This document shows positions 1 through 2,646 of a stretch of DNA of 28,696 nucleotides, one piece after another. Source of the DNA: Minisyncoccota bacterium (GTDB lineage: Bacteria > Patescibacteriota > Minisyncoccia > Phycocordibacterales > XYD1-FULL-46-19); the NCBI GenBank assembly GCA_035453545.1, contig DAOTDH010000001.1, positions 1-28,696 of the forward strand, in the 5' to 3' direction. A model generated the notes under the pieces. It did no database searches. It was not told the DNA's origin and saw only the letters and a program-made list of their open reading frames with translations. Each line of letters opens with the position of its first letter. The first letter of the stretch is position 1. The position numbers and the translations under genes were made by a program.

Positions 1-1362
1 AATGGGGCGGATTTAATCGTGACTGATCTGAAGACCAAAGAAGATTTGGCTGATTCGCTAAAGAAGATAAAAAAAGCCTTAAAGCCAGAAGTTTTTAAAA
101 AAATTAAATTTGTTCTCGGCGAGCATAAGTTAGAAAATTTTAAGAATAGAGATTTTATCTTAAAAGCGGCCGGTGCGCCCCTTGATTCTCCTTTTGTTGC
201 CGAAGCGCGCAAAAATAATATTCCGATCAAAATGGATGCCTCATGGTTCGCGGAGCTTACCCTGAGCGCCGTCGAAGGGCTGAAGATTATTGGCGTTACT
301 GGTACCCGTGGCAAATCTACCGTCACTCACTTAATTCATGAAATTATAGAACCTTCCCAAGGACTCTCCTTGAGAGGCTCCCAAAGGAGAGTCCTTGGGA
401 AGGTTCACTTAGGAGGTAATGTCAGAGGTCTGGCGACTTTGCCTTTACTTAAGAAAGTAAAAGCGGAGGACATTGTGGTGATGGAGTTGGACTCATGGCA
501 ATTGCAGGGTTTCGGTGATTCTAAGATTAGTCCGAATATTTCTGTTTTTACTAACTTAATGGTAGATCACCAGAATTATTATAGTTCGATGGATAAATAT
601 TTTGCTGACAAAGCGAATATTTTCTTAAACCAAAAAGAAGGGGATAGCTTAGTGTGTGGAAAAGAGGTCTTAAGTTTGATTAGAAAAAAATTCCCCAAAC
701 ATTCTGGGCGAGCGATTGTACCTGACGCGGGGGTGGTACCCAAGAGTTGGAAGGTGAAGTTATTGGGCGAACATAATCGTCTGAATATTGCTTATGCGGT
801 GACAGTTGCGAGGATTCTTGATATTCCCGAGAAAATTATAAAGACATCGGTAGAGAATTATGCTGGTGTACCAGGGCGTCTGGAATTTGTGCGCGAAGTC
901 AAAGGCATAAAATATTATAACGATACAACAGCGACCACCCCCGATGGGGTAATAGCGGCATTAAAAGCTCTTAGCCCCCAAGGACTTTCCTTGAGAGGTT
1001 CCCAAAGGAGAGTCCTCGGGGACATTATTCTAATTGGTGGCGGAAAAGATAAAGAGCTAGATTATAAAAAATATGCGCCAGTAGTTAAGAAGAGCGTGAA
1101 ATCTTTGGCGCTTTTTGCCGGTACCGGCTCAGATAAAATAATTAAGGCACTCGGAAATACTAAACTGCCTGCCCGAATCGGTGTGCGAGGCGGGCCTGTC
1201 GAAATTTTCGACAATATGCCATCAGCTTTTGCTTGGGCGAATGGTCAAGCGAAGAAAGGGGACATTGTCTTGCTCTCACCCGGCGCAGCTTCTTTTGGTA
1301 TTTTCAAAAACGAATTTGACCGCGGTGATCAATTTGTTGCTCAAGTTAAAAAATTAAAATAA
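1..1362 (+). CDS. murD: UDP-N-acetylmuramoyl-L-alanine--D-glutamate ligase, 5'-partial; carries in-frame palindromic insertions
   Basis: The frame is open from base 1 (NGADLIVTDLKT...), so the GTG at 19 is internal. Motifs: P-loop GVTGTRGKST, LGGN, VMELDSWQL, NLMVDHQNYY, PGRLEFV, YYNDTTATTP, LLSPGAASFGIFKNEFDRG. Confidence 0.95.
   Translation, partial: NGADLIVTDLKTKEDLADSLKKIKKALKPEVFKKIKFVLGEHKLENFKNRDFILKAAGAPLDSPFVAEARKNNIPIKMDASWFAELTLSAVEGLKIIGVTGTRGKSTVTHLIHEIIEPSQGLSLRGSQRRVLGKVHLGGNVRGLATLPLLKKVKAEDIVVMELDSWQLQGFGDSKISPNISVFTNLMVDHQNYYSSMDKYFADKANIFLNQKEGDSLVCGKEVLSLIRKKFPKHSGRAIVPDAGVVPKSWKVKLLGEHNRLNIAYAVTVARILDIPEKIIKTSVENYAGVPGRLEFVREVKGIKYYNDTTATTPDGVIAALKALSPQGLSLRGSQRRVLGDIILIGGGKDKELDYKKYAPVVKKSVKSLALFAGTGSDKIIKALGNTKLPARIGVRGGPVEIFDNMPSAFAWANGQAKKGDIVLLSPGAASFGIFKNEFDRGDQFVAQVKKLK
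349..406. repeat. Palindromic element copy 1: perfect 23 bp inverted repeat with 12 nt loop, inside murD
   Basis: Arm gaaccttcccaaggactctcctt (349-371) is the exact reverse complement of aaggagagtccttgggaaggttc (384-406). It is read as EPSQGLSLRGSQRRVLGKV. Confidence 0.95.
976..1021. repeat. Palindromic element copy 2 inside murD, same orientation and frame as copy 1
   Basis: ccccaaggactttcctt-gagaggttccca-aaggagagtcctcgggg: 17 bp arms with one G.T pair and one mismatch. It again encodes QGLSLRGSQRRVLG. Confidence 0.95.
1168..1194. repeat. Possible degenerate GC-rich palindromic insertion of a second family in murD
   Basis: cctgcccgaatcggtgtgcgaggcggg is 27 nt and markedly GC-richer than its flanks, with imperfect arms cctgcc/ggcggg. 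It encodes PARIGVRGG in an apparent loop. Only one copy is seen. Confidence 0.4.
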
Positions 1363-1365
1363 ATA

Positions 1366-2646
1366 ATGGATCTAAAAAATATAAGAAAAGTTTATTTTAT
1401 TGGGATTGGGGGCATTGGGATGTCGGCGGTGGCAAGGATGCTCTTGGGTGAGGGGAAACAAGTTCTTGGCTCAGATCGATCTCCTTCTCTCGTTACCGAA
1501 GAATTGGAGAAATTGGGCGCCAAGATTTTTTATGAGCAAAAAGCGGAGAACATTACAGCCGATATTGATTTAGTAATTTATACTATTGCGATGCCGTCTG
1601 ATAGTCCTGAGTTGGTTAAGGCTCGCGAGTTGGGGATCGAGTGCAAAACTTATCCTGAAATGTTGGGTATTATTTCGGCCGATAAGTACACGATCGCTAT
1701 CGCCGGCACACATGGTAAGACAACCACGACAGCAATGATTGCTGAGATAATGATTGAAGCAGGATTAGATCCGACGGTAATCGTGGGGTCGTTATTGAAG
1801 CCAATCGGACCCGAGGACTCTTCTTTAAAGGCCTCCCAAGGAGAGTCCTCGGGTACTAATTTCATCGCTGGCCAGAGTAATTACTTAGTGGTGGAGGCGT
1901 GCGAATATCAACGGTCGTTTCTTAATCTCCACCCGACATTAGCGATTGTTACCAACATTGATGCGGACCACCTTGATTATTATAAAGATTTGGACGATAT
2001 TAAGAATGCTTTCGCACAGTTTCTTTCGCAAAGCAAAAATCAGATCGTTGACTATCAAAGATATTTACCGAAGGTGCCGGAGTTGCTGGTCCCTGGCGAG
2101 CATAATCGGCAGAATGCGGCCGCGGCTTTAGCGGTGGCTGATTTTTTAAAGATTGATTTGGTGGTGGCGATAAATTCGTTAAAAAAATTTACCGGCACTT
2201 GGCGACGTTTTGAATATAAGGGAAAGACAAAAGATGAGGCCCTCGTCTATGACGATTACGCTCATCATCCAACAGAGATCAAAGCTTCTATTCTGGGAGC
2301 GCGAGAATTCATGAAGAAGCGAGGATTGAAGGGGAAATTAATTGTTGCTTTCCAACCCCATCTCTATAGCCGGACGAAATTGCTTAAAGATGATTTTGCT
2401 GAAGCTTTGGCGGGGGCTGATCAGGTTTTTCTTCTTCCAATTTATGCGGCTCGTGAATCTCTTGATCCGGAAATTAGCTCGGAGCTTTTGGCTGATTTTA
2501 TTCGGACGAGGGGAGGGGTTGTGGATAATGCCCGAGACCTCTTCGAAGCTTCTAAAATGCTTCTAAATCAAGCCCGAACGGGGGATTTGGTAATTACTAT
2601 GGGCGCTGGAGATATTTCCCAATTAGCCCCAAATTTGCTAGAATAG
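1366..2646 (+). CDS. murC: UDP-N-acetylmuramate--L-alanine ligase
   Basis: YFIGIGGIGMSAVA, GSD, IAIAGTHGKTTTTAM, VVEACEY, TNIDADHLDYY, RRFE, DDYAHHPTEI, FQPHLYSRT, TMGAGDI. Confidence 0.97.
   Translation: MDLKNIRKVYFIGIGGIGMSAVARMLLGEGKQVLGSDRSPSLVTEELEKLGAKIFYEQKAENITADIDLVIYTIAMPSDSPELVKARELGIECKTYPEMLGIISADKYTIAIAGTHGKTTTTAMIAEIMIEAGLDPTVIVGSLLKPIGPEDSSLKASQGESSGTNFIAGQSNYLVVEACEYQRSFLNLHPTLAIVTNIDADHLDYYKDLDDIKNAFAQFLSQSKNQIVDYQRYLPKVPELLVPGEHNRQNAAAALAVADFLKIDLVVAINSLKKFTGTWRRFEYKGKTKDEALVYDDYAHHPTEIKASILGAREFMKKRGLKGKLIVAFQPHLYSRTKLLKDDFAEALAGADQVFLLPIYAARESLDPEISSELLADFIRTRGGVVDNARDLFEASKMLLNQARTGDLVITMGAGDISQLAPNLLE
1809..1854. repeat. Palindromic element copy 3 inside murC, reverse orientation
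   Basis: acccgaggactcttctt-taaaggcctccc-aaggagagtcctcgggt. The 44 bp core matches the reverse complement of the copy 1 core at 36/44 positions. It is read as PEDSSLKASQGESSG. Confidence 0.92.
2616..2644 (+). promoter_or_regulatory. Candidate sigma70 promoter overlapping the murC 3' end
   Basis: TTCCCA (2616-2621), 17 bp spacer, TGc-TAGAAT extended -10 (2636-2644), then 9 nt to the ATG at 2654. Confidence 0.5.

Follow-up and report, generated by a model that had tools for sequence, protein, structure and literature searches.

How did three similar palindromes come to lie in frame within two neighboring genes for Mur ligases? The question is raised by contig C1 (DAOTDH010000001.1) of the genome of a Minisyncoccota bacterium from the Candidate Phyla Radiation (CPR), whose assembly comprises 550 kb in 103 contigs (42% G+C, 82.6% complete). 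Judged by the source names of the closest MurD homologs, the genome belongs to Candidatus Paceibacterota, a lineage of the CPR (Patescibacteria). The window analyzed here is this whole stretch of 28,696 nt. Its first open reading frame (ORF), murD (UDP-N-acetylmuramoylalanine--D-glutamate ligase; 1..1362, + strand), is open at the 5' contig end and hosts two of the palindromes; it contains the Pfam domains Mur_ligase_M and Mur_ligase_C, and its homologs, 70%–85% identical, are named MurD in their source. The third palindrome lies in the next gene (1366..2646, + strand), a murC-type Mur ligase according to the Pfam domains Mur_ligase, Mur_ligase_M, and Mur_ligase_C and the alignment with relatives. 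Each palindrome consists of two short hairpin units in inverted orientation and can be classed as a miniature REPIN, REPINs being doublets of repetitive extragenic palindromic (REP) units. We regard it as probable, with good confidence, that such miniature REPINs are mobilized by transposases resembling REP-associated tyrosine transposases (RAYTs), and that selection keeps in-frame, stop-free insertions in tolerant loops.

The three palindromes have 44-nt cores at positions 356–399, 977–1020, and 1810–1853. Copy 1 (349..406, + strand, in frame in murD) is a palindrome of 58 nt, for which the repeat finder reported perfect 23-nt arms (349–371 and 384–406) around a 12-nt loop. Copy 2 (976..1021, + strand), a palindrome of 46 nt, lies in murD in the same codon phase as copy 1, and copy 3 (1809..1854), also of 46 nt, is in frame in murC in codon phase 1. 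A pattern search with up to three mismatches matched the cores of copies 1 and 2 (3 mismatches for the latter) and gave no matches in 100 shuffles. The repeat finder added copy 3 with 82% identity, and a covariance model with copy 1 as its sole member from the window recovered exactly these three loci in the window and no others. The same three positions had been named in an earlier, sequence-only reading of this DNA, which also described the third copy as reversed. On the latter point the two comparisons differ: the covariance model favors the minus strand by 3.6 bits, but direct alignment of copy 3 to copy 1 scores 29 versus 28 for the reverse complement, and the orientation of copy 3 relative to the other two is ambiguous. 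In an independent assembly of the source sample, copies 2 and 3 are found with 0 differences on one 2161-nt contig, while copy 1 falls where two contigs overlap, as is usual for repeated sequence. All three copies are therefore real and are not assembly artifacts, a concern that had been raised along with the first description.

Translation agrees with the peptides proposed at that time. The peptide QGLSLRGSQRRVLG occurs twice in MurD (copy 1 encodes ..EPSQGLSLRGSQRRVLGKV..), and PEDSSLKASQGESSG occurs in MurC, the murC peptide being different because copy 3 is read in codon phase 1 instead of 2. The three positions that differ between copies 1 and 2 are all synonymous third-codon transitions (P about 0.02–0.05), which hints at selection on the peptide.

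Each arm of the 44-nt core is itself a small hairpin. The unit is about 15 nt long, CAAGG-ACTCY-CCTTG, the spacer (loop) between the two units is 10–12 nt, and the whole element is 36–58 nt. The unit also occurs singly about a dozen times in the genome, for example as ATATCAAGGACTCCCCTTGATAT. A genome-wide palindrome census revealed several families of doublets of like architecture with different arms; only doublets were counted, since loose single-unit patterns include chance matches inside genes. About 38 oriented doublets have a common asymmetric loop, RAGKGAGCCCR, between the family-specific arms, and with copies 2 and 3 the total is about 40. The genome thus contains many other copies, which the sequence-only reading had proposed to look for, and over half of these are in-frame insertions in housekeeping genes. 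In the alignment of 17 doublets, 93% of the cells were paired and 14 of 16 pairs changed on both sides; the observed covariation score was reached by 0 of 500 shuffles. The outer arms of family B are copy-specific yet complementary to about 24 nt from the axis. The covariance model gave 73 matches in this genome at E <= 0.01, with both strands counted. Search against Rfam yielded only sub-threshold matches to microRNA precursors, i.e., generic hairpin noise, and assignment to a known RNA family was rejected. The doublets are oriented 15:8 relative to their host genes, which is not a significant bias.

It had been suggested that the core of copy 1, being stop-free in five of six frames, would be tolerated at most insertion points. 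The count is correct, but it does not exceed chance (P about 0.20). The number of open frames is five in family A, six in family B, four in family C, one in family D, and three in family E, and the comparison with shuffled palindromes of equal composition was not significant (P = 0.20 for A and 0.06 for B). Open frames as an adaptation were therefore rejected, there being no excess over shuffled palindromes.

To define the empty sites, MurD and MurC sequences were aligned for eight genomes of the genus and roughly a dozen that belong to other genera. MurD site 1 is empty in relative G006 and MurD site 2 in G006 and G002; relative to these, copies 1 and 2 each represent a net gain of 33 nt. The MurC site reads SLLKS|GTNFI (30 nt), i.e., is empty, in five of eight congeners and is 78 nt long in this genome, G003, and G006, so that copy 3 is a clean gain of 48 nt (16 codons). 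Outside the genus, the MurC insert was missing in all genera compared, except in G020 and G021. The element size of 44–46 bp given originally differs from the net gain (33, 33, and 48 nt). The expectation that the insert length would be a multiple of three was borne out: the three Mur sites of eleven genomes contain 19 inserts, each of them stop-free and divisible by three in length. Empty sites are predicted to be unstructured, with folding energies of 0 to -3 kcal/mol, against about -14 to -58 kcal/mol for occupied ones, with -29 to -46 kcal/mol for the three sites of this genome, the lowest value being that of the site-1 stretch with copy 1.

Orthologous sites carry different palindromes in different species, and the insert peptides diverge rapidly between species. 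At each Mur site one outer arm matches host codons that the empty sites show to be ancestral: TCGGG in murC and, in murD, AGGAAGGT for site 1 and CAAGG for site 2. Such features could be produced by template switching (quasi-palindrome correction), which would make and maintain palindromes in place as a short hairpin seed grows by copying one of its flanks onto the other, the transposase-like genes being bystanders. The copy-specific yet complementary outer arms, the coincidence of one arm with host codons at all three Mur sites, and the changing palindromes at one site all agree with this process, but it cannot yield near-identical 36–44-nt cores with an asymmetric, non-palindromic loop at about 40 unrelated loci, and as the origin of the elements we consider it unlikely. 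Template switching may act after insertion, lengthening the stems, and is then more a complement to transposition than a rival.

The predicted structure of MurD (predicted local distance difference test score, pLDDT, 83.7) places insert 1 between the helix 105–119 and the strand 135–139, in a region of low pLDDT, and insert 2 between the helix 314–324 and the strand 342–347, with pLDDT below 50 at residues 328–338. The helix-to-strand position that had been assigned to all the inserts was thus supported for the two in MurD, with the low pLDDT noted. Additional insert sites were observed in the MurD proteins of relatives: ACPERSRR or ACPEQSRG is present in G001, G007, and G006, and several long inserts are present in G031. 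As judged from the aligned sequences, the phenomenon extends beyond the three Mur sites of the window.

Long ORFs occupy about 87% of the genome. ORFs of at least 150 aa contain 21 of the 38 loop-bearing doublets, and with copies 2 and 3 the number is 23 of 40, i.e., at least 23. The majority of the doublets are therefore intragenic, and the extragenic location typical of REPs does not apply to them. The intragenic share is 9/9 in family A and 13/17 in family B. For 20 of the 21 host ORFs a clear housekeeping identity was provided by Pfam. The hosts so identified are Fpg, MnmA, CysRS, UvrB, PolA, DHODH, Pol III delta-prime, Fmt, Dus, ArgRS, LepA, UvrA (two elements), SpoU, TsaD, enolase, RpoD, ScpA, UvrD, and PheRS-beta. 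At least three reading phases are used, all 23 intragenic doublets leave the ORF open, and no gene is split by a doublet.

Frame preservation bears directly on whether the inserts reach the protein. Removal of inserted sequence or its bypass is exemplified by the GC-rich palindromic 'byps' of Magnusiomyces mitochondria and by T4 gene 60. Here too, very stable hairpins are found inside coding sequence, the peptides diverge quickly between species, and no RNA run was found to hold the sequence; the inserts might accordingly be cut from the mRNA or skipped by the ribosome. However, removal before or during translation would lift the frame constraint, and therefore about two thirds of the inserts would shift the frame, whereas 19 of 19 Mur inserts and 23 of 23 intragenic doublets preserve it and the murD copies differ from each other at three synonymous positions only. 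RNA-level removal and ribosomal bypass were rejected on these grounds, and untranslated inserts appear hardly credible.

Doublets of family C (CCCGCCAGACCTC-AAGTGAGCCC-GAGGTCTGGCGGG) are mostly intergenic and lie between an A-run and a T-run, a layout resembling that of bidirectional intrinsic terminators; examples are found at C3:9394–9439, C20:7022–7079, and C46:910–965. Some intergenic copies may serve as terminators. It could be supposed more generally that the palindromes are kept mainly because they serve the host as DNA or RNA elements (in transcription termination, mRNA stabilization, pausing, or protein binding) and that they spread by recombination, mobility being irrelevant today. 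REPs play roles of this kind in other bacteria (PMC3733652), and maintenance of pairing through compensatory changes would agree with such a function. The intragenic copies, on the contrary, have no T-runs and occupy unrelated positions in unrelated genes, presence or absence at the same site varies among congeners, and the flanks of the transposase genes and the co-occurrence described below are left unexplained. A host function as the general explanation is quite unlikely, while exaptation of some intergenic copies is compatible with transposition as well.

The genome encodes four ORFs of 209–224 aa with the Y1/HUH transposase domain PF01797, all above the Pfam cut-off. Their sole NCBIfam match was the REP-associated tyrosine transposase model NF047646. 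Across 11 sequences, the N-H-x-H (HUH) and Y-I-H-x-N-P motifs show little or no variation. In the PDB, the predicted structure (pLDDT 84.6) came closest to 4ER8, E. coli TnpA-REP in complex with a REP hairpin (E 2.2e-6, probability 1.0); the TnpA proteins of IS608 and ISDra2 ranked next.

The flanks of these genes connect them with the palindromes. In all three cases where both flanks are present on the contig, the transposase gene is bracketed by one hairpin unit. The C15 gene has the murD/murC family unit upstream and its reverse complement downstream, the C39 gene has the family B unit in the same arrangement, and the C94 gene has family D units on both sides in ambiguous orientation; the only flank of the C98 gene present on its contig bears a family A-type unit. 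RAYT genes are defined by inverted flanking REP units, and no homologs outside Proteobacteria were found (Nunvar 2010, PMC2817692); inverted flanking units were identified here at C15 and C39. Bracketing by units is left unexplained by template switching. One further feature of the C94 gene (C94:137–802, locus L004) is a family D unit in frame within its own ORF (C94:338–364). The Pro of the YIHLNP motif is also lost, and this gene may be inactivated.

PF01797 matches were present in 29 of 41 related genomes, including all eight congeners, in which the covariance model found 7–78 doublet matches per genome. Among the 12 genomes without a PF01797 match, 11 had zero doublets, an absence that is likewise not expected if palindromes arise by template switching alone. 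The doublet count correlated with the PF01797 count (rank correlation rho 0.75 for the 41 genomes). With the genus left out, rho was 0.70 and Fisher's test gave P = 0.018. The test overstates independence, since it compares related genomes by means of a model whose training set came from the genome studied here. Co-occurrence of the genes and doublets is support, not proof.

Since RAYT-like genes are flanked by the same units, a mechanism can be offered. The palindromes would be non-autonomous REP/REPIN-type elements moved in trans, as single-stranded DNA hairpins, by the RAYT-like Y1/HUH tyrosine transposases of the same genome. Insertions would land throughout the gene-dense genome, and the surviving intragenic copies would be those in which the reading frame is kept, no stop codon is introduced, and the site is a tolerant surface loop; these would therefore be translated as loops of 11–16 residues. 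Catalysis by the transposases, the single-strand route, and translation of the inserts are what we infer from the sequences and models described.

Several results weigh against this explanation. The four ORFs score 22–47 bits against NF047646, whose cut-off is 80, and therefore do not reach the curated RAYT model; sequence and profile searches against PDB sequences were also weak (E 0.014 to 0.84, the latter for the profile against the sequence of 4ER8). As far as can be judged from these scores, the RAYT-like proteins are a distant lineage outside the curated equivalog. The GT(A/G)G or CGTC head was found near an end in 4 of 38 doublets, which is the chance level, and in none of the units flanking transposase genes. 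A search of the palindrome boundaries for a target motif was negative. The presence of different palindromes at one protein site across species is not explained by simple insertion. In 20 Mur loci, the palindrome load was not significantly related to the RAYT count (rho 0.32; Mann-Whitney P 0.06), and the limited independence of the genomes mentioned above applies to the broader correlation. Assembled contigs contained no joint removing an element, presence or absence being seen between species, there were no identical recent copies, and none of the RNA runs searched holds the sequence.

The kind of element is already known, and its closest counterpart is the REP/REPIN-RAYT system. REPINs are doublets of inverted units that form hairpins with compensatory changes, and their spacers in Pseudomonas measure 71 and 110 bp (Bertels and Rainey 2011, PMC3116915). 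Inverted units, a spacer, a predicted hairpin, and compensatory changes are all found in the doublets described here, which are predicted to fold into one long hairpin with compensatory pairing, although the spacer is only 10–12 nt and the element 36–58 nt. As in REP/REPIN-RAYT systems, there are several families per genome, a family's own Y1/HUH gene is bracketed by its own unit, and few transposases accompany many repeats. Unlike in these systems, the GT(A/G)G/CGTC head is missing, a single asymmetric loop recurs in every family, genes contain over half of the doublets, the elements reside in a CPR bacterium, and the proteins of about 220 aa are under the NCBI RAYT cut-off. The TnpA transposases of the IS200/IS605 group (IS608 and ISDra2) are predicted to share the same fold, HUH/Tyr chemistry, and hairpin recognition elements. 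However, a TnpB partner was not observed, the transposase gene and its ends do not multiply as one, and the fold search ranked TnpA-REP above the IS transposases.

In-frame palindromes in housekeeping genes are described for Rickettsia, where the Rickettsia palindromic elements (RPEs) are about 150 bp long (RPE-4 and RPE-6 are shorter) and the added peptide segments are compatible with the protein fold by prediction (Ogata 2000, summarized in PMC10969869). The likeness, in-frame palindromes in unrelated housekeeping genes of a reduced genome, is functional only: RPEs encode longer peptides and are not tied to a dedicated transposase, while the elements described here are about 44 nt long, encode 11–16 residues, and are accompanied by RAYT-like genes flanked by the same unit. 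The original proposal of a short, RPE-like selfish element that colonizes essential coding sequence and adds loops is upheld by the empty sites, the approximately 40 genomic doublets, and the kept frame. What was not anticipated by it is the doublet of units organized in loop-sharing families, the RAYT-like genes flanked by the same units, and the occurrence of intragenic REPs in other phyla (PMC3733652). GTAG/CGTC REPs, as singles and as dimers, were found within known genes, notably uvrA, uvrB, dnaE, recB, and tRNA synthetase genes, sometimes twice per gene (Di Nocera et al. 2013, PMC3733652). The hosts overlap strongly with those identified here, namely UvrA (two elements), UvrB, UvrD, PolA, Pol III delta-prime, and the Cys-, Arg-, and Phe-tRNA synthetases, but intragenic copies are a small minority of those REPs, which carry GTAG/CGTC tags, whereas they are the majority in families A and B, and no tag is present. 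A full-text search, with most subscription journals outside its coverage, found no literature linking REPs, REPINs, RAYTs, or in-frame palindromes with CPR bacteria. The present elements differ from those described in their small size, the absence of a head, the shared loop, the intragenic majority, and the CPR host, whose transposases are too distant for the curated RAYT model.

A common peculiarity of CPR (Patescibacteria) proteins, short and poorly conserved insertions in conserved enzymes, would thus receive an explanation: instead of being adaptive features or errors of assembly, such insertions would be traces left by a hairpin transposon system. As far as the searched literature goes, REPIN-RAYT biology would be extended to a new phylum and a new size range. 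Dozens of loop insertions in essential enzymes of many species would constitute a natural experiment on insertion tolerance and on the conflict between selection for a DNA hairpin and for a protein. In practice, assemblies break at palindromes, apparent protein divergence is inflated, and CPR marker alignments and phylogenies may be misled; the elements could be used as strain markers.

A bolder version, which we regard as doubtful, is that mini-REPINs are adapted to coding sequence, where they would constantly supply CPR proteins with new loop insertions, with the shared loop RAGKGAGCCCR recognized or cut by several diverged RAYT lineages and the hairpin overwriting host codons to lengthen its stem. 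The almost wholly intragenic location of families A and B, with family C being intergenic, would fit such coding adaptation. If so, DNA symmetry would compete with protein coding in essential genes, and one loop would be refilled by different palindromes across species.

Similar sequences were found in other genomes. Matches to GGACTYTYCT-N8-18-AGGAGAGTCC were obtained from Vogel-, Kaiser-, Lloyd-, Zambryski-, Beckwith-, and Gottesmanbacteria, Saccharibacteria, and other Paceibacterota, mostly inside ORFs of 300–1300 aa; since about 48 of the 93 matching stretches in the genome collection were estimated to be possibly due to chance, interpretation was confined to CPR matches that are palindromic. 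The element is also present, in other sequence contexts, on contigs of landfill and bioreactor metagenomes. The murC gene of a relative from a bioreactor metagenome (run X4) has an extra 34-nt palindrome, CCCCGTAAAATCCGCCGAAGCGGACCACGGGGTA, directly after copy 3 (position 1859 of the window), which suggests that hairpins attract further insertions. In a Dehalococcoidales metagenome-assembled genome, SMAG_U15709, tandem arrays of the AAGGACTCTCCTT unit were observed, mostly outside long ORFs (loci L063, L068, L089, L112, L113, L120, L126, and L129); by sequence match, this unit occurs in a non-CPR lineage.

The genome contains two further repeated hairpins, GGTAACATTTTTTACAATCGCAAAAAATGTTACC and ATTATCGAACATCCGATGTTTGATAAT, unrelated to the doublet families and in some cases located at contig ends (C32:1–36, C32:608–643, and C97:615–648; C44:3–29, C74:2966–2992, C54:3218–3248, and C97:669–699).

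Two other segments of the Mur ligases vary among relatives. A candidate fourth, degenerate insert in murD (1162..1190, + strand) encodes the peptide PARIGVRGG at residues of about 388–397. This segment was not matched by the doublet covariance model R1; it is shared only with G003, corresponds to a gap in the other relatives, forms a weak partial hairpin, and has pLDDT below 50 at residues 391–396 of the MurD model. It may be a decayed insert. At about positions 2025–2040 of the window, MurC of this genome, like those of G003, G005, and G006, is without a block of about 22–25 residues, which is present in other relatives and aligned to '..LPSDGYLVCDVNDPLLASAIESAKKKG..' in G007.

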